Assembly (NCBI GenBank): GCA_964187785.1
Contig: OZ076421.1
Coordinates: 4,588,001 to 4,652,000 of the forward strand
Direction of reading: 5' to 3'
DNA length: 64,000 bases
Source: Amphiscolops sp. MND2022
Lineage: Eukaryota
Positions 19,180-64,000 of this stretch are shown here, one piece after another (the stretch's first letter is position 1; every line of letters begins with the position of its first letter). A program made the position numbers and the translations under genes. The notes under the pieces are model-generated. The model did not search any database, had not been told where the DNA came from, and saw nothing but the letters and a program-made list of their open reading frames with translations.

Positions 19180-19190
19180 TGGTGCGACCA
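19180..19190 (+). promoter_or_regulatory. Primer-binding site
   Basis: TGGTGCGACCA directly after the LTR, identical in A, B and C; complementary to a tRNA 3' end GGUCGCACCA (tRNA identity not established; Gly is a guess). Confidence 0.85.
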
Positions 19191-19257
19191 TCTCGTTTCT
19201 TTCCTTTTCTACAATCAATTTTGTAATACAAATTTTCGTCTCTTTCACAAAATCTTC

Positions 19258-19461
19258 TGTACTAATCACCCAAAGTGATTCGACCTCGTAGTCGGTACAA
19301 ACGCAATTCTTCTTCTGTACTAATCACACATTGTGGTTCGACCTAGTAGTCGGTACATCAAAACTTTCTGTACTAATCACCTTTTGTGATTCAGCTCCTT
19401 GCTGGTACACTATCTTCTCTTGTACTAATCACCTTTTGTGATTCAGCTCCGTGCTGGTACA
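19258..19461 (+). repeat. Leader array of four Y-shaped hairpin units (copy A)
   Basis: Units 19258-19299, 19316-19357, 19369-19409, 19421-19461: TGTAC-T-AATCAC-loop-GTGATT-CGAC/CAGC-loop-GTCG/GCTG-GTACA. Confidence 0.93.
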
Positions 19462-19598
19462 CCCGTTTCTTCTCTTATAATCATTTTTCATACTTTAACT
19501 CCCTAATATAATTTCCTTTTCATTTTTGTCTATCTCATTTTTCTAAACCACATTTCTTCACCATAACTTCCTTTTTTCACAATTCTCCATATTTTTTC

Positions 19599-19868
19599 AT
19601 GCCTTCTTTGAATGACTCCGTTTGTATTTGTTTAATTCTCTTCTACATTTTTGGTCTTTGCGCAATTGTTCTGCTCCTTGTTGACAAATTCATCCTTCCT
19701 TTTATTCCACACGCTTTTGATCAATACCGAACATCATCACTCTAATAATTATTTATGTTCCTCACCGAAAATCTTGCCACTATTATTCTTTTCGTTTCCT
19801 ATATCTTTGCCATGATGATTTCTTTAATGCTTCTCATTGAAAAGATTGTTGAATCTCTTTTCAACTAA
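19599..19868 (+). pseudogene. Upstream hydrophobic micro-ORF a (89 codons) with two internal stops in this copy
   Basis: MPSLNDSVCICLILFYIFGLCAIVLLLVDKF...FLTENLATIILFVSYIFAM...; same length as the intact copy in B, with many synonymous differences. Confidence 0.72.
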
Positions 19869-19984
19869 CTTCCTTTTCTTTTCCACTTTCCCCTTTTTCT
19901 TTCCCTATCCCCTCCTTGATTTTTCCGCTTATTTTATTAACACCTTTCCTACCTTTAACCCCATTCTCCTTTTCCTCAATTTGT

Positions 19985-20221
19985 ATGAACCTCCTCTTCC
20001 TTCACCCCACTCCCATCCTTGCTCTTTTCCAACTTCTTTTTCTCTCCCTTTTCCTCATAACTACATCCATATATTTCTATCCCTCTCTCTTCTCCTTTTA
20101 CACTTATCTTCGCCTCAAAATCCATCGCTATTTTCACCCTCCTCCTACTGAACCATCTATTCACCCTGACGTTATTATGGATTGGATTTGGCTACATTTC
20201 AATCCTCATAAACACTCCTAA
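19985..20221 (+). CDS. Upstream micro-ORF b (78 aa), stop overlaps the gag start (TAATG)
   Basis: MNLLFLHP...hydrophobic...PPTEPSIHPDVIMDWIWLHFNPHKHS; C-terminus conserved in B and C. Confidence 0.65.
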   Translation: MNLLFLHPTPILALFQLLFLSLFLITTSIYFYPSLFSFYTYLRLKIHRYFHPPPTEPSIHPDVIMDWIWLHFNPHKHS

Positions 20222-28127: not shown

Positions 28128-28450
28128 TTAATATTCATTTTTTAAATTGGATTTTCTGCCTCCTATTGTCCTCAGTCTAGACTTTTCTTAAGTCTGACAT
28201 ATGACAATCCAATTAACCACTTTCTTCTAGTTCTATCTCTCCATTCTATCTCAACAAACACAAGCTGAACAGTTGCTTTCATTGAGACTTGCTGTCATAC
28301 GAAAACATAAAGAATCTAATCTTCAACTCTTTTTCTCTATTTCATTCATCATTGTATCTACTTCCAATAATAATCTCTTTTCATCCCTTCCCATTTAATA
28401 GTCATCTTTGAAAATCGTCCTTTGTTTCCATCCTGGATCTCACTGTCTTT

Positions 28451-29773
28451 TTGTCCGACTCCTCCTCTCAAACCTCTTCTACCGTTTCAACTGATACTAT
28501 ACCTTCTTCACAAACTTCTGTATCAACTCAACAACCTCCTTTAAATCCTATCCCCATCACCCCTTCTTTAGATACCACCCCTGTTAATACTCCAACCCAC
28601 ACTCCTCTCCAAACTTCTGTACCTCAACAAACTCAGACTTCTTTAACTCTTCCACTTTCTGATACAGAATTTCCTTTTGACATAACCCCTACTCATTCTC
28701 CACCTCCCTCTTCTTTTCATATTCCTGATCCAAGTGACATCAACCCCACTCTTCTTCGAAATATTAATAAACCCACTCTTCCTCGATTAAAACTTATTCC
28801 TACTTCTATAAAATCTTTTCGCCGTCGCTCCCAATTAGATGCTTCTCTTTCTATTCCTCCACCTTGTTCTCATACTTCTACTCAGTCTTCATTACCTCCT
28901 CCTAAATCTCTTAAAATTCCCGCACTTGAATCTCTTGACTCACTCCAGAAAAAATCAGATTTAAGTGAAATCGATTCAACTACTTCCTCTCTTCTTTACC
29001 CACGCCTTCCACCTTCAAATTCTGCTTCTAAATATACAACTTCTTCCTTAGATAATCTTCTTGACACTTCCTCTGAATCTACTATTCGCCATCCACTTCG
29101 CCACAGATATAATCTTCGTAATAATCGTCGTCCTTCTCCTCCTCTTGCAAGTACTAACTCTTCTCTTTTACGCCACCACGCTCAATCTCTTTCTTCAGAC
29201 TCCCTTTCAAACGCAGAAAACGCTCCTACCTCTGGAATCGACACTGCCTTTTCTCAACGTTCCTCTATTCCTTCTTATAATCATACTGGTCATCTTTTCT
29301 CTCGCCCAACTTCTCAAAATTTCAGTCTTCTTTCATCTGACAATCACTTACTTAACATTGATCTTACCACTGATCAATATTCTACTCCTCCTACACCTAA
29401 TCGTGTCGATTATCCTCTAATTGTAAACCACACACTTGTTAATAGCCCCCGCCAAGATCCTCGCTTTCTTTATCTTGCCACTCACAAACTTAATACAAAT
29501 CCTCATATTTCCGACACCCGTCGTCGTAAAGAATTTCTCCGCCTCGAAGAAACAAGTTTAGAACTTAAATTTGAAATTAACGTCAAATTCCATAACTTAA
29601 ATCCTCATCCCATTCCTTCACATACAACAGTAAATTTTAAATCTCTTCCCCATCCTTTTATTGCCACCAATCTTAGTCTTTTTGTTAGCGATCATCCCCC
29701 ATTTCGTCTTTTACACGGTTCAATTACTTTTCTTAATACCCTCACCTTTTTGAAATACACTGCCCAATTTTAA
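28451..29773 (+). CDS. Accessory ORF X, 440 aa, Ser/Pro/Thr-rich, no in-frame Met
   Basis: Stop-free in both A and B, clearly homologous, C-terminal ~60 aa nearly identical; start is uncertain (TTG in the ORF track). Confidence 0.75.
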   Translation: MSDSSSQTSSTVSTDTIPSSQTSVSTQQPPLNPIPITPSLDTTPVNTPTHTPLQTSVPQQTQTSLTLPLSDTEFPFDITPTHSPPPSSFHIPDPSDINPTLLRNINKPTLPRLKLIPTSIKSFRRRSQLDASLSIPPPCSHTSTQSSLPPPKSLKIPALESLDSLQKKSDLSEIDSTTSSLLYPRLPPSNSASKYTTSSLDNLLDTSSESTIRHPLRHRYNLRNNRRPSPPLASTNSSLLRHHAQSLSSDSLSNAENAPTSGIDTAFSQRSSIPSYNHTGHLFSRPTSQNFSLLSSDNHLLNIDLTTDQYSTPPTPNRVDYPLIVNHTLVNSPRQDPRFLYLATHKLNTNPHISDTRRRKEFLRLEETSLELKFEINVKFHNLNPHPIPSHTTVNFKSLPHPFIATNLSLFVSDHPPFRLLHGSITFLNTLTFLKYTAQF

Positions 29774-29776
29774 AAA

Positions 29777-30928
29777 ATGTTCTTCCTTTTCTTTCACTCA
29801 CTCTATTATTTTCTTTCTCCCCTTCTCTTGGTAGTTTCTCAAACTACTTCATCGTCTGATCATGTAGATCCCAATGATCCTCATATTTCAGACCTTTTAG
29901 TCTCTCACTATGATTGCTCTAAACAACACAATTTAAGACAGTTTAGTCTTACTCGAGTCCAACCATGCGTTCAAGCCCCCTCTGCTTTTGAAACAACACG
30001 CGCTATTGTAAATGTTTTTGTTCGTGCTAAAGCTAAACGCCTTCGAGCTTGGACCTGTGAAACCTACGTAAAACGCGAAAAATTTGTTTGTGCCCAATCT
30101 GATTACAAATATCGTCGTCATGATCGTACGGACTATCACCAAAGTACCATGGAACGTCCTCGTACTCTTCACCCAACAGAATGTAAACACGCTATTCGTC
30201 ATTTAAACGGAACTCATAATCCTCAACTCGATGCTTTTAATTATTCTAATTCTTTTACCTTTTTCAATGATATCCAAAAACAACGCCTTTTAGAAACAAA
30301 ACAACCTCCTTTTCGTATTACTAAACTCAATACTTATCACTACGGTGCTTTTGCTTGGATCACCAATTCACAATTAGTATTAAACTCAACTCTGAAAGAA
30401 AAAGCTGTATGTTGGGACCGCTATGAATATATTATTGAAAAAGATAGTTGGTCTCTCATCGTAAAAGAAATTGAAATTACTTATGATGACAAAGAAAATA
30501 AACTAATATATCATGGAAATACTTTACCTTGTCTCCACGACGATGGTTTCTGTAAACCAACAATATTAACACCTTTCACCATTGTTTGGTTTCCTGAAGA
30601 CCTTTGTTTAATTTTTTCCATTCATTCCTTTATTGGTCGAATGTCTAAACTCAATAACCGTTATTGGCTTGAAACTGAGCATTTTTTTAATAATCATTCC
30701 TCTACTGTGTCAACCAATACTCCTTATCATGATACCAAATCTCAGACACGTCTTTCTCGCTTTGAAATCTTTCCTGAAAACAAAATGTTTTGTAATAAAC
30801 CTACTCCTCTACATCTTACACAATATCCTGACCTGTTTATAACGTACACCGAAGTTTTTAATATGCAAACTGGTAAACCTAATCCTCTTCAACTTCCACA
30901 AGACGAACAATACAACCAACTTTTTTAG
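29777..30928 (+). pseudogene. env: Envelope glycoprotein, N-terminal 383 aa (truncated)
   Basis: Signal peptide, then HYDCSKQ..LRQFSLTRVQPC; collinear with B env until broken at about 30925. Confidence 0.8.
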
Positions 30929-31720: not shown

Positions 31721-31735
31721 GTGTTATGCGAACAT

Positions 31736-32091
31736 TAATATACCAGATGATATACCAAACATCTCATAACTTATAATTATCCCCCACCCTCTATATGTCT
31801 AGACTTTAGAACAGTGCACCTCATTTCCTTATTTATGAATGTACTCGATTAATATTCTAGATGTACAATGAATTGTCTGACTGTCTGATGTAACTACTTT
31901 ATATTCAATACCATACATTCTGATCTGTACAACACAACTTGAATTGACTCTTCATAAAATAGTTGTCTTCACTCAAAGACCTAATAACTGCAGCTCTATT
32001 AGTGTCTATTAAAGTACTATTTGTAAAGTAAACTAAAAGACCTAATCCTATCTTACCACCTAATAACAAGTAGAACTACAAGTACTTTAAC
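31736..32091 (+). repeat. 5' LTR of copy B
   Basis: Direct repeat of 49657-50013 with about 12 substitutions by manual count; first dinucleotide is TA instead of TG. Confidence 0.93.
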
Positions 32092-32102
32092 TGGTGCGAC
32101 CA
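32092..32102 (+). promoter_or_regulatory. Primer-binding site
   Basis: TGGTGCGACCA immediately after the LTR. Confidence 0.87.
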
Positions 32103-32166
32103 TCTCTCTTTCCGTTTTATAAACTTCTTTGCATCCATACTTTCTTTCAATACTAAGCAAATTTTC

Positions 32167-32371
32167 TGTACTAATCACACAAAGTGATTCGACACGATGT
32201 CGGTACACAACTTCAATCTTCTTCTGTACTAATCACAAATAGTGGTTCGACTCAGTAGTCGGTACACCTTATCTCTTCTGTACTAATCACCTTTTGTGAT
32301 TCAGCTACGCGCTGGTACAACATTCTTTTCTGTTCTAATCACCTTTTGTGATTCAGCTCCGCGCTGGTACA
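32167..32371 (+). repeat. Leader array of four Y-shaped hairpin units (copy B)
   Basis: Units 32167-32207, 32225-32266, 32279-32319, 32331-32371; stems as in A, loops differ. Confidence 0.93.
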
Positions 32372-32511
32372 CTTTCGTTTCCCGTCCCAATCCCTTTCAC
32401 GTCTTTTCCCTCTTACAGCTTTCTTTCATTTTCTTTTTTACTTTCTTTTTTCCTTTCATAATATTTTCTATTTCAAATTCTTTATCATTTCTACCTCCTC
32501 CCAAATTTTTC

Positions 32512-32781
32512 ATGCCTTCCCTTAATGACTCCGTTTGTATTTGTCTAATCCTCCTCTACCTTTTTGGTCTCTGTGCCATTGTTCTTCTTCTTGTTGATAA
32601 ATTTATTATCTATTTCATCCCCCATGCTCTTGAACAATATACAACATTATCTCTTCTTCTTTCATTTATGTTTCTTACCGAAAATCTTGCAACTATTATT
32701 CTTTTTGTCTCCTACATTTTTGCAATGCTAGTTTTCTTAATGCTCCTCATTGAAAAAACTGTAGAATCTCTTTTCCACTAA
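32512..32781 (+). CDS. Upstream hydrophobic micro-ORF a, 89 aa, two predicted TM segments
   Basis: Intact ATG-TAA: MPSLNDSVCICLILLYLFGLCAIVLLLVDKF...FLTENLATIILFVSYIFAMLVFLMLLIEKTVESLFH; conserved in A and C. Confidence 0.78.
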   Translation: MPSLNDSVCICLILLYLFGLCAIVLLLVDKFIIYFIPHALEQYTTLSLLLSFMFLTENLATIILFVSYIFAMLVFLMLLIEKTVESLFH

Positions 32782-32813
32782 CTACTCTCCTTTCTTTTTC
32801 TCGTTCCTTTTGT

Positions 32814-33052
32814 ATGAACCTTCTCTTCCTACACCCCAATCCTTGCTTTGCCCTTTTTCACCTCATCCTCTTTTCCGTCCTTCTTATCAGTGTTCCTATA
32901 TATTTTCACACGTCTCTTTTCTTTCTCATTCTATATCTACATTCGCCAAAAAATTCATCGCTATTTTTCCCCTCCCTACTGAACCATCCGTCCATCCTGA
33001 AGTTATTATGGATTGGATTTGGCTATATTTCAATCCCCATAGACACTCATAA
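32814..33052 (+). pseudogene. Upstream micro-ORF b, frameshifted; TAATG overlap with gag
   Basis: N-half in the 32814 frame (MNLLFLHP), C-half in the 32810 frame (PTEPSVHPEVIMDWIWLYFNPHRHS). Confidence 0.6.
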
Positions 33053-36000
33053 TGACTGATCCCATACAACCCCTTATTCCCCTTCCCTTTGTTTTCAATA
33101 CCTCTCGACGTGTCACTCGTGATATTTCACAAACTCTTACTCAATTTCTTAACAATCTTATTTATAACTCCACCACTCCTCTTTCTTTTGAAACCTACCC
33201 GGAAGATATTTATACAATCCCTCTCATTCGTGAACATCATGATTCTTATTTATACTATTTTGACACCCATTCTCTTGTTGCAAATTCTGAAGAACCCCCA
33301 TTTTCTATTCCCTTTACTTCTTCCACAAATCGCTCTGATACTTTTCGAAAAAAAACATCTATCCTAATATTATTTATATCTCAATTGCTAATGTCTTTAC
33401 AACCTCCCTCGAACATCTACAAGAAAAAATTAACCTTTTACCTAAACATGTTTTTAACCCTTCTTCCATACAAGACCTTCTCCAAAAGGAATCTCTTTTT
33501 GACCTTCCTAATATTGAACAATTTCGTACTATTGAAAATAATCCCCACCATTGGCTTACTACCGATATTCTTCAAATTCACCATTTTCAATATCAATTCT
33601 TTCAGAATCTTACGCTCACTACCAAAACAAAAGAACAAATTAAGATATACTCTCTTTTCCTTCGAAAATTTTTCCGACATAATTACCAACTCATTTGGCA
33701 CTCAAAATTCCAAGATGCTTGCATAAATTTTCCTCAACAGTTTACTCAAAATGAGCTTTTACCTTTTCTCGATACTCTTGATAATCAACACCCTCAGTTT
33801 TATAATCTTCTCGATTTCCCTTCTCCTCATTTTAAAAACCTTGCCTATGACTCCAACAGTCTTGATAAAAGTCCTAATCTCCCTCCTCCTATTCGTCCTT
33901 ATATGCAACAACACTTTATACCACCTTCAACTGATACAACTTCCAATGTTTCTATTCACACTCTCTCCTCTTCTTCAAATGCTATATTAAATCCTACCCC
34001 ATCTTTAAATCAACACACTTCCACTTCTACTTCTCAAATCACCACAACTACTGAACTCCTTCCTACTTCTAACTCTCCGAACCATTATACTACACCTTCT
34101 AATACTCCACCTGCTGTTCCTTATAATATTGTTCAACCGTCCGCTCTTCAAATACCCATATTACCCCCTATTCCTCTTTCTTTAAATAATACTCTCCCCT
34201 CACAGTCCCTCCCTCAAAATCCCCCACCTTCTTCCGCCCATGATCCTTCTTTACTTAATCAAAACCCATTTTCTTCTTCTATACCACCAATTCCTACTAT
34301 CTCTCAAACTATTTCTTCTACCACCCAATCCACCTCGTACAACCCTTATCTTTCTCTCTATCCTACTTTTCAAAACTTCCCCACTAATTCTCTCCAGCCC
34401 CCTCCAAACCCCCCTAATTCTATTCCTCCTACTTCAACATTACCTTTCAACCCTTCTTCTACATATTCATCTCTCCCTTTTCCAGTCAATCCTTCTGTCC
34501 CTTTTGCTGCTTTGTCAGATCCTATTAAACTCTTTGATGTCCTCGACCATACCTATCCTCCTGAAAAATTCTTAGCACATCTAAGTGCACGAGTAACATT
34601 TCAACATGGACCTCAACCTGTAGATATTCACTCATATTTAACTTGGCATTCTCGTCGAATGTCTCTCCTTTATTGTTCCCTCACAGGAACTGCTTCCAAT
34701 TGGTATGATCGTCTCCCACAAGTTTATAAAGATGATTGGTCATCTTTTCTCTAAATCTTTAAGAAACAATTTTATTCTCAAAAACACGCATATCATGCTC
34801 AAATTGAAGCTCTTTCCCTTGTTAAAAAGGATAATGAAAATGTCCGTCACTTCGCGCTCAAGGTAGAAACACTTGTTAAACAAGGTTGGTTTAATGAATA
34901 CCCTTCTACTATTAACCTCAAATGTAATGAAATTTTTACCCGTGGTCTTCCTGAAAAAATAAAAGACTTTGCCAATAAACGCCAAGTCAAACATATTTCC
35001 AGTTCCTTAGAACCATCAATTCCTTTTCACTCTCTAGTCAATATGGTCGATTCAGAAGATATTACTATTGAAAAAATTAAAACTCAAGAACTTTCCCTTG
35101 AAATTAACACTCTCTCCAATAATTTTCAACAAAATGCAACTATTCAAGATCCTCCTTCCGAATCTCCACAAGTTCAAGCAATGGACCCTAACAATAAATC
35201 GAAACCCCAATTCAAAAAATATTGTTCCTTTTGCCATAAAAATAACCACTCTGTTTCAACTTGCTTCCGCCGACTTAATATGCTCAAAGAATCAAAACCA
35301 CAATCTAGATCTCCGACTCCTACCTTTTATCAACATTTTAAAAGCCCTTCCAATAAATCTCATTATCCTCGTTACCGTAGTCGAAGCCACAGTAACCCTT
35401 CCCGCAGATCTTCTCGCGAAACTCGATATCAATCTCGTTCTTATTCACGTTCACATTCACGTCCTAGAGATAATATTAAAACTCCCTCCCGCACATATTC
35501 ATCTTTCCACCATCGTGATAGATCTCGATATGATGGACACTACAATCAAAATCCTTACAAATCATACACTTCTTCACGAACATGTTATAACTCTAATTCT
35601 TCTCGTAGTCCATCCAAATATTACCCTCGTTCCCGTGAACGTTCCTCAAATCTTTCTTCTTTTAATAGATACAATTCTCCGTATCGTCCCCCTTCTGAAC
35701 CACGCAATGATCGTTACCGTAGTAGATCTCATTCAAACTCAAACAATTATCCTCGATCCCAATACAAACCATCTATAAATCTTACACATTCATCTACACC
35801 GCCTCTTCAGAGCAACTCCAATACAGAAACTAATTTTGAAATAAATATGTATTACCCTAACTCTCCATTATCCCAGCCTTCTTCAACTTATACTGAACAT
35901 GCCAACGCTATTACCCCTTCCACTTGGTTTGTTAATGTATACATTTTCAAACCTTGTGAAGATACCTCTATCCCTTCTAAATTAGAATTCTTGTTCCTAC

Positions 36001-39000
36001 TTGATAGTGGAGCATCCATTTGTGTTTTAAATTTACCCACCTTTACCATTTTAGCCGATCACTTTTTAAAATGCTCAAAACATTCCCCACATCAAAATGA
36101 ATATAAAACTTTAACCGTTGCGAATAAATCCGAAGTACCTATTCTTCATAATCGACCACTTACGCTTCATACTTCCCTTCAAGGAAATACTCGTACCCTT
36201 ATTATTCCTTTTGCTGTAGCCAATATTAAATACAATATTCTTGGAACTCCCTTTTTTGAAAAATATGTTAAAACTCTTAATATTGAATGTATGTCACTGA
36301 CATTCAATACTCCACATGATTCTCGCATTAACACCCTCCCTTTTACAGCTCATAAGGAAAAAGATTATCCATATTTTTCTTACATATACACCATCAATGT
36401 TAAAAATAAGCTCTATTTTAAACCCAACGCTTCTCAGATTATCCATTTCCCAATTCAACCAACACTTCCTTTAACTTTTAAAACTTCTGATAATGAACTC
36501 ATATTCCCTTCCACACCTCATCCATTTTTTAATACACGCTTCAACTCAACTTTTAATTTTCTCCAAGTCTACCAAAATGTTAATACCGAAACCTCTAGTT
36601 GTTCTGTTATTATTCAAAATATTACCCACCATTCTGCCATTCTTGCTCCTGGATATATTGGATACATTGAGGTTCCAGTCACTAATAATCTACCAACTCA
36701 ATATAAAGTTAATGATGTAAACTTCTTAATACACACTGTATTTCATTCTTATTATCCTGATCTTTCAGAACCAAAACCTCCCCGTCGTCGTTCTTCTCTT
36801 CGCAACCCTCAAATTGAAATAAACAATTTAAAACCATCTCAAATGTTACCCCGACCTCTTCCACAATTACCATATTCACCAGATACTCAACAATTCCTCA
36901 ATAAATTTAAATTTCAGTATTCCGATGTCACTGACGATGAATACTTACAACTCTGCTCCATTCTTGTTAAATATCGTACCTGTTTTGCAACACACAAAAA
37001 CGATGTTGGCCAAATAGCTACTCCTTTTAGAATTCGTCTTAAACCTAATGCCAAACTTCAAACCCAACTACCTACAAAAGTTCCTATTCACTACAGAGAA
37101 AAATTAAAAACACTTCTTGATGAATTAGAAAAAAACAATATTATCCGCCAAATTGGTTCCACTCATTCTGACAAATCCATATATCGCACTACATTTTTAA
37201 ACCCTCTCATTATTATCCCTAAAGGAGATACTATTAAAGTCGTTTTGGACGCACGACAGCTTAACTCGAATACCGATCAATCTTTCGAATCATGGCCTAT
37301 TGAACCTTTAGCTCCCCAACTTGCCCGTGCTAACAAAAATTCCAAATCTGCCATTGATCTCATGTATGCTTACGCTCATGCCCCATTAGATGAAGAAACT
37401 ATAACTTTAACTAGTTTCTCTTCTGGTGACAAACTTTACGCTTTTATTCGTGGACTTTATGGTCCTAAAGGCCTACCCAATTTTTTTACCAAACAAATGT
37501 ATTCATTTTTTCAAAAACTTATTGACCAAGGTTTTGCATTAGTTTATATAGATGACATTCTCCTTCTTGCACATACAAAACCTCACATGTTAAATTTAAT
37601 TGAACAACTTCACCAAATCTGTCAAACAAATAACCTTAAAATTGCTCCTGAAAAATCTTTCTATATCCTCCTCACTGTCAAATTTCTTGGACATGAAATT
37701 GGTAATAATACAATCAAACCCATCTCTTTTAAAGTTGATGCCATCCACCAATTGAAGACACCCACTTCTAAAACTGAATTAATGCGCTTTATAGGATCAA
37801 TGAACTTTTATTCCAAATTCATCAACAAACTACACATTTTCTTGAAACCATTTTACACTCTTCTCCATGATGATATTTTGTTTGAATGGACTCCTGATCT
37901 CGATAAACGTTTCAATCAAGTCAAACTTTCTCTTATTAAAGATGCAGAACTTGCCAATCCAAATACTACCATTTTACATAATCTTACATTACATTACATT
38001 ACATTACATTACATTTTACATAAATTTTACATTTACTATCCATCCATTTTACATAACTGTCGATGCCTCTTTAAATGGCCTAGGTGCAGTTTTATTTCAA
38101 CCTAACTCCAAAAACAAAATGCAAATAATTTCTTACAATTCTCGTATTTTAACAACTCAAGAACAAAAACTTTTCACCTATGATAGAGAAATTTGTGCTA
38201 TTACTTTTGCCCTTTCTCAATACGAATTCTTTATAATTGGTTCCAAATTCCCGATAACTATTTTTACGGATCACAATCCTATTCTTTTTCTTTTCACTCG
38301 TAAAAGTAACCTAACTCCCCGACAATATAAAGCTCAAATGCTATTACCAAAATTTTCAAACCAACAAATAATTCACACAGCTGGTACGAACCTTACTGTT
38401 GCTGATATGCTCAGTAGAGATTTTTCAACTATTAATAATAAAACATGCCAACTCCAACACAAAACTCATTCTCCACATATTGATTTTCTTCAACTCAAAA
38501 ACGATAATATTTTAAAACCCATTCGCTATCTAATAAAACATAAAGACGTACTCCCTACATAAAAAAATGATTCACATTTAATTTTAGCTGATTATGGTGA
38601 GGATCAATTCACACTCCGTATCCAAGATAAAGGCAATGTTGTTAAATATACTCCTCTTGATTCCTTCTCCTTCCAATCAGTTTCCTCATTCCCAAATAAA
38701 TACAAAAAACCTGTCAAAAACAAAGTTAAAACTTTACTCTAAGAAAATCCTCTTTTAAATGAAACTGATTTATACGATACAGACGACCCCGTTCTTAAAC
38801 GAATCCCCCAAGAGTATTCGCAACCACCTCATTAATTTCACACTCTTTTTACTGAAATCCAACACCATTACTTTAACGATATCAACTTGTCTCAAGATAA
38901 CAGTCCTAACCAACCTTACCAATTCCCCTTCTATTAGTAATAATACTATTGACAGTAATGCTGTAACCCCAACTTCTCCAAAGCCTATACAAACCCAATC

Positions 39001-41047
39001 TTTACCATTCTTTGACCCTTCCTTCTTTGCTCACTGTAAAGCATTTGATAACTTCTTTCTCTCTTCTGATACCTTTTTAACAGTACCCATTCTACTTCAA
39101 GCTCAAAAGGATGATCCTGTCCTTTCTACAGTATATAAATGGTTAAAACAAAAACAAAGACCTTATTCCTTGACCCCAATTATTAAAGCAAACTCCTTTT
39201 TATATACATATTATAAACAATTTCAACATTTTTTTATAGATCCAAACTCTCATCTTATTCAATATTATACACCTAACACTCGGATCTTTGAAAAAAATTT
39301 CAATAAAACTCAACCTTCTATTAACCAAACACGTATATGTTTACCATTTAAACTCTTTCATGCTGCATTTAGTAAGACACATTCTCATGGTCATTCAGGT
39401 GAAAAACTCTCTATTAAGACATTTAATCAATTTTATTTTATCCCTCATTTACCTTTATGGTTCTCTATTTTCATCCATGACTGCATTGAATGTCAAACTA
39501 ATAAACATTTTCCTAATAAACCCCAAAATATTTCTCCCCCTCTTCCCTTTTACGAAAGTGCTACTCATTTCAATTACCGGATCTCTATGGACATTAAAGG
39601 CCCTATTTCTCTATCATCACAAAACAATTCATATATTTTTGTAATCATTGACGCCTTTAGTCACTTTGTTGTTACTGCTCCTAATATCACTTCAAAATAT
39701 GCAATTCAAACCCTCCTCTATCACTGGATCACCAAGTTTGGTCCCCCTCAATACCTAGTTACAGACAGAGGTACTGAATATATCAATCAAGATATGGCTC
39801 ATCTATGTTCTCTTTTCCACATTATTCACTCACCTCGAACTCCTTACTCCCCATGGACAAACGGTTTAGTGGAAGTTTAAAACCGAAATCTTGGAACTCA
39901 TCTCCGAATATTTTTACAAAATCCACCTACTAACTGGTCATTTCAAACTCAAATGTACGCATATGCCCATAATACAACACCTCTTTCTCAACTCAAACTT
40001 TCCCCTTATCAAATCGTTTTCCATACCCATCCTCGTATACCTCTTACCTTTTCTCTTAATCTACCTCGTGATACTTCAAAAAATTGTATAGCAATATATT
40101 GTGAGTCTCTTCCCCCTCATTCACATTATAGCACTCAAGACCTTAATCCCTTCTTCCATTCACTTCTTGATAAACCTATCTCCCCATGGCTTTTGGCAGC
40201 TGAAACTGCAATGTTAGAAATATACTCAACTGTCCACCGCCATTTAAATCATAAACTAAATTCTCAAAGTTCTACATTTGAAACAACTCATTTAAAACAA
40301 TTACCTCTTAATACTTTTGTGATTCATACGAATTTTAAACCTGTTAATTTTTCAAAAAAGCTCAAACCTCTCCGAATTGGCCGATTTAAAATACTTAACC
40401 ATCTATCTGAAGTAACGTATGAACTCTTTTCGCAAGATGGCTTTACATTCCAAACCCATCGAAATCATATTCTACCATATTATCCTAGAGAACCCATAAT
40501 ATTTCCATATATTAAACACTATCATTCTACCCCTTCCCTTATTAATAACCCTGATACTGAACCTTACCAAGATACATTTTCTCAATTTTCCTCATTAGAT
40601 TTACCGCACAATCCAAATCATTCTCAAACCCCTACATCCTCAAAAATTAGACAATCCAATACTTCTCCTACTCCTGTTCCTAGATATCAAAATTTTCCAC
40701 ATTATTCTTCCTTACAAGACAAATTAGATAATATTCCAACAACTACTCCTGTTCACCGCAACCCTTCACATTCTTCTTCTCAAGATAACCTCGATAACAC
40801 TATTGATTCTCACGACTCTGACTTTGAAATGCTTCCGAACCCCATTTATTATTCAACCTCTTCAAATGATTTCTTTCCTCAGTTCTTCCCTCGTATTGCT
40901 GACTCTCCTGATATTTCCTCCTCCCCTTCACTTACCCTTCAAAATGACTCCACTTATAAACGAGCTCCTCATTCCCCTTATAATTTACGTTCACTCCTCC
41001 CCAGACATTATAATTCATCCAAACCAAACATCGATTTCCCCCCTTGA
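33052..41047 (+). pseudogene. gag-pol: Gag-Pol polyprotein, disrupted
   Basis: ORF 35043-38105 runs gag CCHC, RS region, LLDSGAS, RT (YIDD) in one frame and is in frame with 33903-34754; RH VDASLNGLGAVL/YDREIC/TDHNP; IN HSHGH..CIECQ, SMDIKGP, TDRGTEY; ends SPYNLRS. Confidence 0.95.
37971..38040 (+). repeat. (TTACA)n expansion inserted in pol
   Basis: Six perfect TTACA at 37984-38013 plus degenerate flanks; absent from copy A at the homologous RT/RH junction; shifts the frame. Confidence 0.9.
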
Positions 41048-41379
41048 TTAAATATTCATTTTTTAAATTGGTTTTCCTCCCTGTGCATATTGTCCTTAGT
41101 CTAGACTCTTATTAAAGTCTGACACACGACAATCTAATTAGTACCCGTATCTTATACACACTTCTTCACTTTACCTTAGTGAACGCTAACTGAACGGTTG
41201 CTATCGTCAAAACTTCATTTCATCGAAACAACAATCGTATTCTTTTCAAATCACTATTCACTACTTTCCATCTACAAATTTTACTCCTTTCTAATATCAA
41301 TCTTTATTTATCTTTTCATACTTTAAAGAAAAATGTAATACATCTCCCTTTTGTTTCCATCCTGGATCTTACTGTATTT

Positions 41380-42705
41380 TTGTCCGATTCCTCTTCTCAA
41401 CCCTCTTCTTCTGTTTCAACTGATACTATACCTTCATCACAAAGTTTTTTACCAGTCCCTCACCAACCTCCCTTAAACCCTTTACCAATCACCCCCTCTT
41501 TAGATACCACCCCTGTTAATACCCCAACTCACACCCCTCTTAAAACTTCTATTCCTCAACAAACTCAAACTTCTTTAACTCTCCCACTTTCCGATACTGA
41601 ATCCCCTTTTAATATAACCCCTACCCATTCCCCACCTCCTTCTTCTTTTCATATCCCTGATCCCAGTGATATAAACCCTACTCTCCTTAGAAATATTAAT
41701 ATTCCAACCCTCCCTACACCAAAACTTATACCTACCTCCATAAAAACTTTTCGCAGACGCTCTCAATTAGATAATTCTTTTTCAATACCTCCACCTTGTT
41801 CTCATATCTCCTCTCAACCTTCACTTCCCCCACCTAAACCTCTCAAAATCCCTGCCCTTGAATCTATTGATTCTCTCCAAAAGAAGTCTGACTTAAGTGA
41901 AGTCGATTCAACAACTTGCTCTCTTCTCTTTTATCCTCGTCTTCCTCCTTCAAATTCCGCCTCTAAATATACAACTTCTTCTTTAGACAACCTTCTTGAC
42001 ACTACTTCTGAATCTACTCTTAACCCTCCACTTCGTCATCGATATAATCTACGCAATAATCGTCGCCCTTCTCCTTCTCTCGCCAGTACTAATTCTTCTC
42101 TTCTACGCCATCACGCTCAATCTCTTTCTTCAGACTCTCTCTCTAACGCAGAAAATTCTCCCACTTCGGGAATTGACACTACCTTTTCTCAACGTTCTTC
42201 TATTTCTTCTTATAATCACTCTGGACACCTTTTCTCTCGTCCTACCTCTCATAATTCCACTATCCTTTCTGATAGTCACTTACTTAACATTGATCTCACT
42301 ACTGATCAATACTCTACTCCTCCAACACCTAATCGTGTTGATTACCCTTTAACCGTAAATAACACTTTTGTCAGTAGCCCCCGCCAAGATCCTCGCTTTC
42401 TTTACCTTGCCACCCATAAAGTTAATTCAAATCCCCACATTTCAAATGTACGTCGCCGTAAAGAATTTCTTCGCCTAGAAGACGCAAATTTAGAGCTTAA
42501 ATTTAAAATTACCGTAAAATTTCATAACTTAAGTCCTCATCCCATTCCTTCACATACAACAGTTAATTTTAAATCTCTTCCTCATCCTTTTATTGCTACA
42601 AATCTTAGTCTCTTTGTAAGCGACCATCCTCCGTTTCGTCTTTTACACGGCTCCATTACATTTCTTAATACCCTTACCTTTCTGAAATATACTGCACAAT
42701 TTTAA
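41380..42705 (+). CDS. Accessory ORF X, 441 aa, no in-frame Met
   Basis: Homolog of 28451-29773; stop TAA is followed by one base and the env ATG. Confidence 0.75.
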   Translation: MSDSSSQPSSSVSTDTIPSSQSFLPVPHQPPLNPLPITPSLDTTPVNTPTHTPLKTSIPQQTQTSLTLPLSDTESPFNITPTHSPPPSSFHIPDPSDINPTLLRNINIPTLPTPKLIPTSIKTFRRRSQLDNSFSIPPPCSHISSQPSLPPPKPLKIPALESIDSLQKKSDLSEVDSTTCSLLFYPRLPPSNSASKYTTSSLDNLLDTTSESTLNPPLRHRYNLRNNRRPSPSLASTNSSLLRHHAQSLSSDSLSNAENSPTSGIDTTFSQRSSISSYNHSGHLFSRPTSHNSTILSDSHLLNIDLTTDQYSTPPTPNRVDYPLTVNNTFVSSPRQDPRFLYLATHKVNSNPHISNVRRRKEFLRLEDANLELKFKITVKFHNLSPHPIPSHTTVNFKSLPHPFIATNLSLFVSDHPPFRLLHGSITFLNTLTFLKYTAQF

Positions 42706-42706
42706 A

Positions 42707-45478
42707 ATGCATTTCCTCTTTTTTCACTCGCTTTTCTATTTTCTTTCTTCCCCGTTCTTAGTCCTTTCGCAACTTACTCCCTCCTCTGATCATGTAGATC
42801 CCAATGATCCTCATGTTTCAGACCTCTTAGTCTCTCACTATGATTGTTCTAAACAATATAATTTAAGACAGTTCAGTCTTACTCGAGTCCAACCATGCGC
42901 TCAAGCTCCATCTGCTTTTGAAAGTACCCGCGCTATTGTCAATGTTTTCGTCTGCGCTGAAGCTAAACGTCTTAAAGCTTGGACCTGTGAAGCTTACGTA
43001 TAGAGTGAAAAATTTGTCTGTGCTCAATCGGATTACAAATATCGTCGTCATGATCGTACTGATTACAATCAAAACACTATGGAACGTCCCCGTACTCTTG
43101 ACCCTACAGAATGCAAACATGCTATCCGCCATTTGAACGGAACTAATAACCCTCAACTCGACACTTTTAATTACTCTAATTCTTTTACATTCTTCGATGA
43201 TATTCAAAAACAACGCCTTTTTGAAACAAAACAACCCCCTTTTCGTATTACTAAACTGAATACCTTTCATTATGGTGCTTTCGCTTGGATCACCAATTCA
43301 CAATTAGTATTAAACTCAAATCTAAAAGAAAAAGCTGTATGTTGGGATCGTTATGAATACATCATCGAAAAAGATAGCTGGTCTCTTATCGTAAAAGAAA
43401 TTGAAAGTACTTATGATGATAAAGACAATAAACTCATTTACCATGGACATACTTTACCTTGTCTCCACGATGATGGTTTTTGTAAACCAACTATATTAAC
43501 ACCATTCACAATCGTTTGGTTCACTGAAGAACTTTGTTTAATCTTTTCCATTACTTCCTTTATTGGTAGAATGTCTAAGCTCAATAACCGTTATTGGCTT
43601 GAAACTGAACATTTCTTTAATAACCATTCCTCTACTATTCCAACAGATACTCCTTATCATGATAGCAAATCTCAAACCCGCCTCTCTCGCTTTGAAATTT
43701 TTCCTGAAAATAAAATGTTTTGTAACAAACCCACTCCTTTACACCTTACTCAATACCCTGATCTTTTCATAATATATAAAGAAGGTTTTAATATGCATAC
43801 TGGTAAACATAACCCTCTTCAACTTCCACAAAACGAACAGTACAATCAACTTACTACCCAGTTAATCTCTGGAAAATTAATTCATACTCAAAACAAATTT
43901 CTTTTCCCTGCTCTAAACTCTTCAAATAATTTCGCCACTATTGATTATGAAGCTCATATTAACACTAAAATTGACTATTCTATAAACCATGTCTTTAAAA
44001 GCATGTCTGTTGCTGAAATTAATACTCTTCATACTATATGTGAAGTAGAACGAACCCAACTTTTAACAATTCTCGCCATGTCTGTTAAAATTCCACAACT
44101 CGCTGGTTTCCTCTTAACCCAAAACTGTAGTAACTTCTTATATGTTGAAGGCTCTACCGCCTGGTTATATGATTGTCCTCATCACCTTTCACCTTTATAC
44201 ATTGCTGATCAATGCTATGACAAAATTCCTGTCAATTATCTTGACACTGTTATGTATGTTGACCCTATTACACGTGAAACTTTCGAATATGCCAATCAAC
44301 TTCCTTGTGAAAATAATCCTCAAAATGTTATTTCTCTTGACCCAGACACCGACCAATATTATGTTTTAATGCCTCAACCTATTAAAAAAGACCCCCCTCT
44401 TCTTTTTGAACCAACCCAAATCCAAACTGCTATTAGTCCTAATACCTTCACTGCTCAAGATGCTGGTATTTATTCTCAAAAAGAACTAAAACACTTCTGG
44501 AATAGAGTTTTATTTACTAAATATTCCGACAATACTCTTCAACTCCTTGGAAAAGCTATTAGCTATGAATTTATGAATCAACAATCTACTAGTTCTTTTC
44601 CAGATAATCCTTATCAATCACTACGAATTGGTCTTCACGACTACATGTTAAACTTAACCCCATTTTTCTCTCCTGATTGGTTTACCGATGCTTTCATAAA
44701 ACTCTTTGGTTATCCATGCTATATTTTAAGCCAATGTGGAATCTATTTCTCTACCGCTCTTTTTTTACAATTCGCTTTTAACACACTCTTCAGTATTTAT
44801 CGTTCTTTTACCGTTCGGAATTTGCTTTAAAAACAAATTTCTGTTGTAACTGCTTTGGGATTTGGTTTTTTCGGAACTATTACCCAAATCATGATGACTG
44901 CTATGCTTAAATCATCCAATTCCCACTCCAAATCTGACGATTCAGATTCACCCCATTCCCCATTAGCAAAAACCCACATTCCTTCTTCTAGTCCTAAACC
45001 TCGTCCGCCTACCTATCATACTAATATGAAAACAAAAATCCTTAATTTCAAAAAGAAAACCCCAATGCCACGATCTTCTCCTAATTCTTCCCCAACTAAA
45101 CCCCTTTCTTCTTCTGTTCTTCCTTCTGCTCCTACTGATCAAACACAATCCTTTAACACCGAAGATTCTTCGCCCCCTCCCCCAAATTATAATTCTCACC
45201 TTCTCTCTCATAATAATCTTTCTCATCGACCAGCTCAAATATCTTCATTATCTTCTCGTCTATATTTACATAATTCTCCTCCTCCTGATGACACTAATTG
45301 TGATAATTCTTCTACCGATTCCCCCATACATAACCTCTGGCAATCTACTAAAATTTATCCCCCTACTCCACCGCCAATTAAAACTAACGACATCACTTTA
45401 ACTTCTGTCAATAATCTTTTTGACCCACCTGACAGTCCTGTCAAAGTTTATTCTTCTTGCCGTTTTCCTCCTGAATAA
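42707..45478 (+). pseudogene. env: Envelope glycoprotein, chuvirus-G/gB-like class III candidate (923 codons, two in-frame stops)
   Basis: ORFs 42707, 43079 and 44855 share one frame (stops at 43001 and 44828). Signal peptide; YDC..SL..V.PC; CEVER.QL; CYDKIPV...YVDPITR...LPC; TM near 44700-44800, second hydrophobic segment, S/P-rich tail. Confidence 0.78.
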
Positions 45479-45809
45479 TTTACCAACTTTTGATTACGTC
45501 AATTTCTCCTCTGCATATTAATACCCTAACTTAATTCCCAGCGAATTACTATTGAATGTTAATATTCTACCTCCTTTCCATAATAATTATTGTTAACTTA
45601 ACTTATTTCCCATTTCATTTGTCATCATTTCCACTTCTCCTTTGGTCACTTCTCCTTCATTCCTCAACAATCATTTGATTTAAACGGAACTCTTGCATAA
45701 GAGTCATAATCACGCACACTTATATCATCTTCATTTGCTATATCTCACACTTGTATCATCTTTATTTTCGTGTATTCAACTTTTTTCACCCTTCCTTTTG
45801 AATTCAAAA

Positions 45810-47294
45810 ATGGCATCTATAAATCCAGAAGAAGAACTTCTGTCAAGCATCGCTTCTTTGTCGCCCCCTCTTTCTCTTAAATCTGGTACTCTTGATATTC
45901 CCCTTGTCAATGATTCACTTCCTCTTGACACTAACAATACTCCAGAACCTACTCTAAATACAAATCCTAGTACTTCTCAGTCTCTTACTAAACCATCCTC
46001 TACAAATCTCAAAACTCGTCACTCTCCTACTCCGCCTCCAAATAATCTTCATATTACTATTGATAATCATCCAATTCCGCTTAAAAAGAAATATAATATT
46101 CTTGAAGATCCTGTCTTCATTGATTCCGGTATCTTACCTCCTACTCTTCACCCATTAAAAACTCCTTCTCAATCCAATACCATGACAGACGAATTCCTCC
46201 GTACCCACCCAATTTTTAAAGCTAACCTCTTTTCTTTATATATGACCCCTACTACCTATATATTTTGTTTTCCTCAAGATCGTAATTTTGACCACTATGT
46301 TGCGTATGCTTCAAAAAATTTACCACAACTCGCCTTTTGGCAGAATAATCGTATTCGTTTCTTCCAATTTCAATTTAATCTTCTTGAACCAACCCACCAT
46401 GATCTCAATACTAATCCCAACGACCTAACCACAACTCCTTCTGTTAAAAAACTTCACCATCAAACTTACCAACTCTTTCTTGAACAAAAACACCCCCAAA
46501 ATTTCATTTTCCAAAATCACAAATTTACTTCTCCGTTTTCATATCATTCTCACTATTCATTAAACCATCTCTTCACAATCGGAACAATTCGTAACTATGA
46601 TCCTGTCAAACAATACTTCATCTTTTCGTCATACCATGACCCTACTCGTCCGTTGTTTGTTCCTCAAGAAGCTCTTAATGTTAATGATGATTTTCTTCTT
46701 CCTACCCATATCCCTAATGCTGTTCCCAATTTCTTCCCAAAAATGAACAAATTAGTAGAAACACCTCTCGATGATCATTCCCGCTCTCTATATACAGCTC
46801 TAATTCACAAACATTATTCCCTCGCCCAACTCAATTTCATTATTGCCAAACTTTCTTCATTCATTTTGAAAAAACAATATAAATACTTCTCTTTGAATGT
46901 CTCGGATGAAATTCTTCAGTCTCTTCCTAAACATTCCCCTCCTAATAATGTATCTGAATCTTCTCAGGCTCCATCTTTAGCAATCCCTTCTAACCCTAAA
47001 TCTTATGTTCTTCAAACTGCAAATCCTAATGTTTGTATCAACTCCTTCTCCTGTCCTACTGACAAATTCGTGTCAGAAATTCTTACTCTACTCCGTCCTC
47101 ATGTTGAAATTGCTCCTAATACCGATCCTTTTGTTATTTTAAACCATATTTTTGATACATTCCGTAATCTCCAATCATTACTTCAACTTCAATCAACAGA
47201 TATTCAAAATTTAACACTATCTACAATTCATGTTAACGACTTTCTTAAAAAACTTGTTTTACTTGAAACTCCTCCTCAACTCACCTCATTTTAA
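45810..47294 (+). CDS. Orphan accessory ORF Y, 494 aa
   Basis: Intact from ATG 45810 (MASINPEEELL...), lies inside the LTR pair on the sense strand; no motif recognised. Confidence 0.68.
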   Translation: MASINPEEELLSSIASLSPPLSLKSGTLDIPLVNDSLPLDTNNTPEPTLNTNPSTSQSLTKPSSTNLKTRHSPTPPPNNLHITIDNHPIPLKKKYNILEDPVFIDSGILPPTLHPLKTPSQSNTMTDEFLRTHPIFKANLFSLYMTPTTYIFCFPQDRNFDHYVAYASKNLPQLAFWQNNRIRFFQFQFNLLEPTHHDLNTNPNDLTTTPSVKKLHHQTYQLFLEQKHPQNFIFQNHKFTSPFSYHSHYSLNHLFTIGTIRNYDPVKQYFIFSSYHDPTRPLFVPQEALNVNDDFLLPTHIPNAVPNFFPKMNKLVETPLDDHSRSLYTALIHKHYSLAQLNFIIAKLSSFILKKQYKYFSLNVSDEILQSLPKHSPPNNVSESSQAPSLAIPSNPKSYVLQTANPNVCINSFSCPTDKFVSEILTLLRPHVEIAPNTDPFVILNHIFDTFRNLQSLLQLQSTDIQNLTLSTIHVNDFLKKLVLLETPPQLTSF

Positions 47295-47978
47295 ATCTTT
47301 TTCTTATATGGGTAAATTTTCTTTACATCAAATTCCTACTCTATAAATTTCTCTTTTTTAATCCATGCTACAATAATACTAATTTTTCATGTTACTTTCT
47401 CCAAATATAATTACCTCTACTTTCAAAACTTTTTCTCAAAATCTTTTCCTCTCTCATGTGTCTTTCTTTTTTCACATCTATTATTCGTCATATCTGATAT
47501 CCTTTTAATCTCTTTAGAAAACAACTTTCCATTTCCTATTTCTTATCTTCATTGACTTCTCACACAATTTTTCTTCTCTTTCACTTACTTCTTCTATAAT
47601 TATATTCTTCGCTCCTAATTAACATATATCATTTCTTTTTCTTTTTCTTCTGACACTTTTCCTATTAGTTTCTTTTGTTCTTAGATTTATTCCCTTGACA
47701 TTTTTACTTGTTCCCCTTTTATGAGTTTTGACAACTTACTCTTAATTTTCATAACTATATTATTTCAACAAGCATTTTCCATCTTTAATTCCTCTTTTTA
47801 CTTGCTCATTTAACATCTCTATAGTTCACTACTTCGACGGATATCATTTTTCCAAATTTTCACCACATAATTTTTCTGCTCTGCCATCAATAAATTTGAT
47901 CACAACATTCTTCATCTATATTCAATTGATCCAACTTCTTTAAATAAAAAATAACTGAATAATCATTTTGTTTCAGTA

Positions 47979-48578
47979 ATGTCATCTTATCCTCCTTCGA
48001 CTCTGGCATATCCTCTTCTTAATCAACTCCTCGACTCCTTTCTGCCATTCCCCGCTTCTTCTACTTCTTCGACATTCACTCTTCCATCCATTGATGCTTC
48101 TTCAACTTCGTCTTCAATTTCGTCACAAACTACTACTGTGACATCACTGGTTTCTTCAACCTCTACTGTTCACCTGCCACCCATTTCTTCTCTTTTGACA
48201 ACAACTGCTTCAACTACTCTCCCAGTGATTTCTTCTTCTCTCCAATCTTCAATAGAGATGACAGACCTCACTTCTTCTCTTCACCCCAAAGATGCAGTCG
48301 CCACTTCTCCCAATCTTCAACAATATTCTGCCGTTCGTCAACTGACCAATGATCTTCAACGCAAGAAACCACGGCACCCCAGACGTCCACAGCCACCTCT
48401 TGATGGAATTGGTCCACCTGTCCGTCGACTGGTCCACACAGCTGTCTATAAACAGAAAATTGCACAATATATTGATGCATTAAAACTTTATGAAACACAT
48501 CTTGATGAACTTATTCAACAAACTACTCTTGAATTAGATAAGATTAATAATACACCCCCCCCCTTCAAAATTGCGTAA
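47979..48578 (+). CDS. Orphan accessory ORF Z, 199 aa
   Basis: ATG start; S/T-rich N-half, basic RKKPRHPRRP cluster, helical coiled-coil-like C-terminus. Confidence 0.55.
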   Translation: MSSYPPSTLAYPLLNQLLDSFLPFPASSTSSTFTLPSIDASSTSSSISSQTTTVTSLVSSTSTVHLPPISSLLTTTASTTLPVISSSLQSSIEMTDLTSSLHPKDAVATSPNLQQYSAVRQLTNDLQRKKPRHPRRPQPPLDGIGPPVRRLVHTAVYKQKIAQYIDALKLYETHLDELIQQTTLELDKINNTPPPFKIA

Positions 48579-49656
48579 TTTTAAATCGCCTCAGTCGAAA
48601 CCTCGCCATTTATCACCTTTAAGTAACCAAATCCCCTCCCATAATTGCTCTAATTACCATAATTATTTTCAATGCAATACCCCCCATTGTTCACATGTAC
48701 CAATAAAATACACAATCCATTCTCCTTTACCCCCTCTCTCTCTTTCCCCCGCATTAATTCCCATTCGTATTGAACCCATAACACCATTGTTTTGATCACA
48801 TCGTCTTCTTGCTTTGAAGTTCCGCCATTCCTTTTTAGTTGATCAAAAGACGAAAAAGATGAATGCTTAGTTACCAGACAACTAAGAATCTTGGTCTTTC
48901 ACACTGAACTTCTCTGTCAATCAGACTACCCTTTCTTGCCAATCTTTCAATTCTTAATTACAGTGCATAGGCAAGCTATTTTGCTGCTTGTCGTGGAATC
49001 CGGGACACGAAAATTCCGCTGCTTGTCCGTGGAATGCTTGTTTGTGGAATCCGGGACTTATGACGTAGTTTGCCAATTTTGCACGGTTAAAGGTATGGTC
49101 GTGGAATCCGAGATATTGAAAGCACAAAGTTGCGCTTTGAGCAATAAGGCTTGCCTGTGCACTCTAATGTTATGAATTTCTACCTGTCAATTAAATCTTT
49201 TCCTGCCTCGGAAGAAACTGAAAATAACTATTATACGAAAGTTCATAGACCCTGAAAACATGAAAAATCTAAAATTACCACTAAAATAAAGATAACAATA
49301 CACCTTAAAATTTCTAAAATTTTCTTCTTGTAATCTCAAAATACATCCCCTAGCCTCTTAATTAAATGAATCTATTTAACTACTTTATAAAACAATCTCA
49401 TTAAGAGTAATACCTGACACTGCCCGTAACTCACGAACGGAAAGAAACGAAGACAACTTTATTTTTTCAAAAAAATTTTCTTTTGGATTTTATACCAGAA
49501 ATTGCTAAACTTTCTTTTGTTATTCCTTCTCTTCACACGTATTAAACCAACTTCCGACAATTTGAATAAAACCTCCAATTCCATAAATTCCACTCATAGA
49601 TCTTTAAAACCAACACCAAGTTTAACAATTTCCATTCTTTTCAAAACCCGGTCGGA

Positions 49657-50013
49657 TGATATACCAGATGATATACCAAACATCTCATAACATATTATTA
49701 TCCCCCACCCTCTATATGTCTAGACTTTAGAACAGTGCACCTCATTTCCTTATTAATGAATGTACTCAATTAATATTCTCGATGTAAAATGAATTGTCTG
49801 ACTGTCTGATGTAACTACTTTATATTCAATACCATACATTCTGATCTGTACAACACAACTTGAATTGACTCTTCATAAAATAGTTGTCTTCACTCAAAGA
49901 CCTAATAACTGCAGCTCTATTAGTGTCTATTAATGGACTATTTGTAAACTAAACTAAAAGACCTAATCCTATCTTACCACCTAATAACTAGCAGAACTAC
50001 AAGTACTTTAACA
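49657..50013 (+). repeat. 3' LTR of copy B
   Basis: TGATATACC...GTACTTTAACA, matching 31736-32091. Confidence 0.93.
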
Positions 50014-63982: not shown

Positions 63983-64000
63983 TGTGCGTTTGTTCCAGAG

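Follow-up and report, generated by a model that had tools for sequence, protein, structure and literature searches.

A giant, recently mobile Ty3/Gypsy family with eight conserved open reading frames in the genome of Amphiscolops sp. MND2022

Whether invertebrates harbour complex retroviruses in the full sense, equipped with accessory genes whose expression is regulated, is an open question, and the env-bearing Gypsy elements known so far mostly have three genes. The question is raised by a 64,000-nt stretch of the genome of Amphiscolops sp. MND2022 (contig OZ076421.1, positions 4,588,001 to 4,652,000; hereafter the window), in which an earlier note had described a giant Gypsy element of about 18.3 kb, with seven sense-strand open reading frames (ORFs) between two long terminal repeats (LTRs), as an ancestral design rather than a chance nesting. 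Here we show that this element belongs to an abundant family in which eight ORFs, six of them accessory to gag-pol and env, are kept in a fixed order, and we weigh what such an element might do.

Self-comparison of the window placed a direct repeat at 31738-32091 and 49659-50012. The LTR pair is 96.6% identical (12 differences in 354 nt), within the 96-97% proposed at the outset, and together with ACAT on both flanks it identifies a single insertion of 18,275 bp (31736-50010), so that the giant size was borne out. The copy itself has decayed: its gag-pol carries three net frameshifts (near 33346, 37969 and 38899) and five premature stops, the frame of ORF Z shifts after 199 codons, and approximately 690 nt at 48787 are missing relative to 17 Y-selected copies with both sides aligned, a deletion that puts the family length at about 18.8 kb. 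The element's sense strand is C-rich, with 8% G. The order of ORFs given in the earlier note stands, and their number has to be corrected: a stop separates micro-ORFs a1 and a2, formerly read as one micro-ORF a, in 24 of 27 other copies, the remaining three are frameshifted earlier, and none is read through (readthrough is confined to the window copy), so that the family has eight ORFs. Similarly, a single-frame gag-pol, which had been claimed for the window copy, is not found there and is a property of the family: in 8 of 10 young copies gag-pol runs uninterrupted for 2,635-2,637 aa. Copy A, a second element in the window, is 83-84% identical to the copy under study (copy B, 31736-50010) and keeps the same order, as had been noted, only as far as the middle of env.

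The exact junction of LTR and primer-binding site (PBS) occurs 248 times in the genome (1.07 Gb) and its reversed control not at all, which defines a family of at least 248 copies. The mitochondrial COX1 of this genome fits genetic code 5, in keeping with an invertebrate host. Given that copies picked by ORF Y would bias any test of Y and Z, an unbiased sample was drawn by taking each fifth of the first 100 listed LTR/PBS junctions (n = 20), blind to both ORFs. All eight ORFs were found in order in 15 of these; of the other five, one has no Y, one ends in pol, and three are old or internally deleted, keeping Y in each case and lacking a match to Z in two. Twenty Y-selected copies were colinear, and 19 of them align through Z. 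A Y-less subfamily was considered and rejected, since of 40 copies scored (from 444 candidates) a single one has the Y-less junction, and two old copies (L104-L105 and L124-L125) hold Y twice in tandem. Ten copies from the top of the protein search form a young subfamily that spans 18,158-18,913 bp. Its LTRs (320 bp, TG...TA) are 100% identical within each of the eight pairs read, and the same eight copies have 4-bp target-site duplications; env is 923 aa in nine of the ten copies, while Y (495 aa) and Z (297-301 aa) are open in all ten. Judged by these identical LTRs, the family is recently mobile.

Between subfamilies, ratios of non-synonymous to synonymous substitution rates (dN/dS) were 0.09 for a, 0.21 for b, 0.12 for X, 0.09 for Y and 0.32 for Z, compared with 0.07-0.10 for Pol, 0.05 for the env ectodomain, 0.21 for the env tail, 0.22 for gag in its coding frame, and 0.65-0.79 for four non-coding controls (the 3' untranslated region control of the g1-g2 pair, 2 codons, was left out). 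Low values were confined to the called frame of each ORF. The second subfamily holds the same micro-ORFs, and a second pair of copies gave 0.09 for a1 and 0.12 for b, with 6 of 87 non-synonymous versus 18 of 24 synonymous sites differing in a2. By these ratios all eight ORFs are under purifying selection. The suggestion that other copies carry Y and Z, and that the layout is an ancestral design, is therefore upheld by gene order in the unbiased sample and by dN/dS of 0.09-0.32 in the extra ORFs, and we regard it as hardly open to doubt that the eight-ORF architecture is real and ancestral to the family. Features of the window copy are summarized in Table 1.

Table 1. Features of the element and of copy A, in window coordinates
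Feature	Position	Strand	Remarks
Target-site duplication ACAT	left 31732..31735; right 50011-50014		4 bp
5' LTR	31736..32089	+	family termini TG...TA; palindrome GTCTAGAC at 31797
Primer-binding site	32092..32102	+	11 nt complementary to 3' end of likely tRNA-Met(CAT)
Leader, ~52-nt hairpin repeats, AUG-poor	32160..32372	+	candidate packaging signal, inferred
Micro-ORF a1	32512..32649	+	45-48 aa, one hydrophobic helix
Micro-ORF a2	32668..32781	+	37 aa, one hydrophobic helix
Micro-ORF b	32814..33052	+	78 aa, N-terminal half hydrophobic; frameshifted in window copy, end 33059
gag-pol	33052..41047	+	broken in window copy
pol-X spacer	41048..41361	+	candidate internal promoter; GTCTAGAC at 41099, CTGAACGGTTG at 41190
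ORF X	41362..42705	+	447 codons counted from conserved CTG; no ATG
env	42707..45478	+	923 aa; two premature stops in window copy
ORF Y	45810..47294	+	494 aa; open in window copy
ORF Z	47979..48790	+	~298 aa in family; window copy frameshifted (stop at 48578) and deleted
Conserved AAAACCCGGTCGGA	49643..49656	+	position expected for polypurine tract
3' LTR	49657..50010	+	
Copy A	18867..30922	+	truncated, 5' LTR to mid-env, another subfamily

The replication parts are of the Ty3/Gypsy type, comprising LTRs, PBS, a 4-bp target-site duplication and the domain series protease (PR), reverse transcriptase (RT), RNase H (RH) and integrase (IN). Gag-Pol, about 2,637 aa in the family, begins with a 290-aa N-terminal domain followed by a serine/proline (S/P)-rich linker, a CA-like gag and one zinc knuckle (C-x2-C-x4-H-x4-C) ahead of PR, RT, RH and IN; the integrase has a GPY motif, and YNLRS lies close to the Pol C-terminus (40979). 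Compared with solved structures, RT matched Ty3 (E 1e-47), then caulimovirus-type (3e-24) and foamy (2e-20) enzymes. Pfam models for RT, RNase H and integrase matched the window, as did one for a Monjiviricetes fusion domain (E 8e-20); no chromodomain was found in the Pfam scan of gag-pol, whose tail is S/P-rich with YNLRS. Two inserts, at aa ~1100-1270 between PR and RT (~36300-36800) and at aa ~1760-2070 between RH and IN (~38400-39200; 300 aa), matched no Pfam family at E <= 10, nor did the gag N-terminus, and the PR-RT insert looks dUTPase-like by eye. Gag-pol relatives elsewhere reach 2,742 aa, with RT 41-42% identical, and fall in clusters of 721 and 1,493 members.

Env comprises a signal peptide, a class III fusogen-like ectodomain, a membrane anchor and a long S/P-rich tail with PPxY motifs. 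It matched PF24664 above the cut-off (E 8e-20 and 1e-26), and an atlas search (score 0.94) returned class III fusogens of negative-strand viruses, rhabdoviruses and herpesviruses as neighbours, the ten best family-bearing matches lying in one family or clan. A class III ectodomain is thus present between signal peptide and anchor at the level of profiles, and env is very probably a class III fusogen-like protein. Relatives elsewhere are ~900 aa and 48-52% identical, and phage records gave no match to env. In the same genome, sister env-Gypsy families have an env 27-30% identical to that of the window, and four of the five ORFs scanned after env in these families are separate TRAF/MATH ORFs (E 1e-22 to 4e-10; L065:2957-3706, L067:2875-3864, L069:3084-3722 and L071:3119-4120), the longer ones with a coiled coil ahead of the domain. 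MATH is known from Burro elements (PMC6431247), and a decoy of TRAF immune signalling is a possible role. The MATH-bearing families (L064-L077) have a 4-5 kb gap between pol and env without a long ATG ORF. A further family (L062-L063) is 12.2 kb long, shares the PBS of the giant family and has LTRs that are 99.4% identical; its gag and pol are separate, and its class III env is followed by a coiled-coil ORF of 519 aa.

Upstream of gag, one strongly hydrophobic 19-mer occurs in each micro-ORF (3.2 in a1, 2.9 in a2 and 2.3 in b), and the same scan found none in X, Y or Z. The stop codon of b and the start codon of gag share letters, reading TAATG in 17 of 19 copies and TGATG in one. ATG is depleted in the leader (observed/expected 0.19), whose hairpin-repeat region scored z = -4.1; an Rfam search of the element matched no family. 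The primer is likely tRNA-Met(CAT), from its complementarity to the PBS; ARAGORN called one of the four loci tested, and variant Val and Leu tRNA genes also match the PBS. A tRNA-Leu(TAA) tandem array with a 270-bp period lies at genome locus L079. At the other end of the element, AAAACCCGGTCGGA is conserved at the polypurine-tract position, where there is no plain purine run, and the LTR termini are TG...TA, not TG...CA.

ORF X is 40% serine, threonine and proline, with a conserved C-terminal part of ~110 aa for which Pfam offered no family at E <= 10. It has no ATG in any of the ten young copies, and across its 1,349 nt no ATG occurs in any frame in nine of nine young copies (7.5 expected). 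Where one synonymous codon would bring in an out-of-frame ATG, that codon was used at none of 5 sites in X versus 54 of 77 elsewhere (p = 0.004; p = 0.04 and 0.02 in the window copies), and such avoidance was not seen in gag-pol, env, Y or Z. Coding conservation starts at a CTG, which in all 20 copies is flanked by a purine at -3 and by G at +4. The env start follows the X stop by 1-4 nt in all 20 copies shown, one of which has no env ATG, and lies farther from it in the young copies. Of the 20 unbiased copies, 16 have GTCTAGAC in the pol-X spacer ahead of X, and in nine of nine young copies it is confined to the LTRs and this spacer (0.1 expected per element), a distribution that suggests an internal promoter, as in Tor3b/4b. 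On these grounds we lean towards an internal promoter with a CUG start of X and leaky scanning to env. X also contains YNLR (42043), retained with that of Pol in an old subfamily; the motif of both proteins matches YNLRS of lamin A (PMC12527912) and YNLRPR of foamy Gag (PMC12125541), each of which binds the nucleosome acidic patch.

ORF Y has homologues 27-48% identical (570 matches at E <= 0.001) and no Pfam family; an atlas search gave no usable match, a profile search of PDB a single match (E 2.9), and a profile search of eight sister-family loci nothing. Its low-confidence predicted structure (pTM 0.27) contains a weak barrel at ~aa 244-293, for which a Tudor/SH3-like identity is a lead only. 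The spacer between env and Y is AUG-poor (observed/expected 0.08). Z is rich in serine, threonine and proline, with a helical middle, and is preceded by an acceptor-like TTTTGTTTYAG whose AG is kept in 18 of 21 copies. A TscT match of Z lay below the cut-off and was taken as chance.

Taken together, these signals can be arranged into a working scheme. Ribosomes on genomic RNA would move past the short ORFs of the three membrane peptides, and a UAAUG stop-start would let them begin again at gag, so limiting the output of Gag-Pol. A bicistronic X-env RNA would come from a second promoter, within the pol-X spacer; a minority of ribosomes would start X on it at CUG, and the others would scan on through 1.35 kb that has no AUG until they reach env. 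In a weaker step of the scheme, Y would be served by its own AUG-free leader and Z by its splice acceptor. Through YNLR, X and the integrase tail would bind the nucleosome acidic patch and tether the integration complex; Y may read chromatin or methyl marks, the micro-peptides would be membrane accessories in assembly or release, and Env would carry particles from the producing cell into another, most simply from soma to germ line. On balance we favour the view that the element works as a complex enveloped retroelement, likely budding with the predicted class III fusion protein and likely expressing its extra genes from subgenomic, partly polycistronic RNAs, and we put the formation of infectious particles at an even chance. 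A more ambitious proposal, which we make tentatively and would not bet on as a whole, is that of an undescribed lineage of complex, enveloped and still active invertebrate retroviruses on a Ty3/Gypsy Pol. Such a virus would have eight genes, among them those for three viroporin-like micro-peptides, for a reader-like Y and for a nucleosome-tethering protein that starts at CUG and is co-translated, from an internal promoter, with a fusogen of negative-strand-virus type. The lineage would be a convergent counterpart of the complex retroviruses of vertebrates, and other animal genomes would hold its relatives.

Several points weigh against this picture, which is predicted from sequence. Besides the unbiased copy without Y (1 of 20), two further copies lack most of it, and Z was not detected in two old copies; copy counts and dN/dS pairs are moreover not independent, because the copies are related. 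Plain leaky scanning cannot explain gag, since its ATG stands in a weak context and strong ATGs lie within a2; reinitiation, shunting or splicing must serve it. The ATG-avoidance test uses 5-6 sites per copy. YNLR is only four residues long and is missing from three gag-pol relatives of 2,600-2,740 aa. Env had no match by sequence among solved structures, and the best match of the Y barrel reached Z 4.7 (root-mean-square deviation 2.0, 44 aligned), with none at E <= 0.001 in Foldseek.

Other explanations account for part of these data. The element could retrotranspose within cells, Env and the accessories acting on the host cell (in fusion, signalling or defence evasion) and no infectious particle leaving it; the large S/P-rich env tail is indeed unusual, the particles are predicted, and plant env-like ORFs are, in the relevant part of PMC5408684, unproven as envelopes. 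We nevertheless hold this to be unlikely, in view of an env ectodomain constrained like Pol (dN/dS 0.05), the retention of signal peptide, cysteines, anchor and PPxY motifs, and homologous env in several sister families. Slightly less probable still is splicing from the LTR promoter, by which X, Y and Z would be exons or separate spliced messages, like CERV of Cer1 and env of Tor3a, and X would lack an AUG as an internal or terminal exon. There are known cases of accessory messages made by splicing (PMC10309623, PMC4402516), the AG before Z is well kept (18 of 21 copies), and a similar pyrimidine run precedes X, but there is no conserved AG at the X start, an exon would have no reason to avoid out-of-frame ATGs at synonymous sites, and the LTR palindrome GTCTAGAC recurs just upstream of X. 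An origin of the extra ORFs by chance, whether from insertions nested in the element, from fragments captured from the host or from frames with few stops on the G-poor strand, draws on the long spurious frames that a strand with 8% G gives and on the low complexity of X and Z. Frame-specific purifying selection, starts and stops fixed across subfamilies, and Y homologues at 27-48% identity contradict it; refuted by dN/dS, by intact young copies and by gene order in the unbiased sample, it retains a negligible probability.

The window also holds other repeats. A third, divergent relative on the minus strand (50397-54476; identity 60% in a1, 37% in b and 35-67% in gag) is interrupted by a 1.17-kb insertion (51490-52654) that is also present at 16418-17523. 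Positions 1-6000 (+) contain an unrelated, decayed Gypsy with zinc knuckle, RT, RNase H and an integrase tail bearing YNLRP at 5871. Fragments at 11700-13822 (-), weakly matching endonuclease VII and viral-type DNA polymerase B, are possibly a Polinton/Maverick remnant, and a long inverted repeat at 58248-64000 (arms 80-95% complementary, centre near 61060) is probably a foldback or DNA transposon.

Among the closest known systems are the gB-type 'ancient errantiviruses' of invertebrates, drawn from a survey that describes 1,512 Gypsies carrying an env of F or gB type (PMC13524379): in these too a class III fusogen-like env comes after a Ty3/Gypsy Pol, and they are multicopy, recent elements with intact gag, pol and env. 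They have gag, pol and env only, in ~7.4-12.6 kb in 45 rows of the survey's element table, with pol and env adjacent, whereas here X lies between the two and five more ORFs flank them. The survey filtered out regions longer than 10 kb or with pol and env more than 1 kb apart, some groups being extended manually by 3-5 kb, and would tend to miss a layout with 1.66 kb and X in that interval. The PBS string of the giant family occurs in none of the rows of its element table; a relative may stand among its elements. More generally, surveys capped near 10 kb or requiring adjacent pol and env would miss the element, and ATG-based annotation would miss ORF X. The contrast with typical Metaviridae drawn in the earlier note was overstated in that env-bearing Gypsies of 7-13 kb (PMC13524379) and Burro elements of more than 30 kb (PMC6431247) have been described. 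Burro/GYPSM1 of planarians is likewise a giant Gypsy with env homology, accessory functions and many copies, but joins its domains and env in one polyprotein of 4,900-5,100 aa, where the present family has separate ORFs, extra ORFs on both sides of gag-pol, and env as its own gene (PMC6431247). The MATH, BIR and BCL2 domains described for Burro were not found in this family, MATH being present in the sister families.

Tor elements of Oikopleura also have a separate env, driven in Tor3b/4b by an internal promoter, but possess three ORFs, with an env classed as F-type in PMC13524379 and no AUG-less ORF before env described in the pertinent part of PMC4402516. Vesta, Juno and TelKA of bdelloid rotifers are Gypsy-like with extra ORFs, some small and transmembrane, and carry one variable ORF3 per family (F-type env, GDSL or DEDDy) rather than six fixed accessories (PMC5408684). 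Functional analogues of the start signals are rice tungro bacilliform virus (RTBV), with a non-AUG ORF start followed by ~900 AUG-free nt and leaky scanning, and SART1, with UAAUG stop-start coupling as at b/gag; RTBV and the badnaviruses are, however, plant pararetroviruses and SART1 a non-LTR element, without such an integrase, LTR and env layout (PMC5902531). Cer1 makes a spliced accessory protein (PMC10309623). Among vertebrate Retroviridae, foamy-like fish endogenous retroviruses reach 17 kb, enlarged by accessory ORFs (PMC6431247), foamy Gag carries YNLRPR like the YNLR of X and Pol (PMC12125541), and lokiretroviruses have an env from negative-strand RNA viruses (PMC9040795). These viruses have a dual RNase H, as do the Odin and loki elements (PMC9040795); in the present family the best solved match to Pol is Ty3, whose type RH matches as well, and the 300-aa RH-IN insert has no Pfam match. 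No related loci were found in metagenome or viral contigs. In the literature searched, with Repbase, GyDB and subscription journals outside its scope, the parts consulted describe no Gypsy that has the eight genes in this plan, and look-ups directed at acoels as the likely host group brought up no described family. Gypsies with an env, with an internal env promoter or of larger size, such as Burro, are already known; what these searches did not bring up is the present combination, in one family that is young and abundant, with six conserved accessories and testable signals, so that the question of complex retroviruses in invertebrates can be asked directly in its host.

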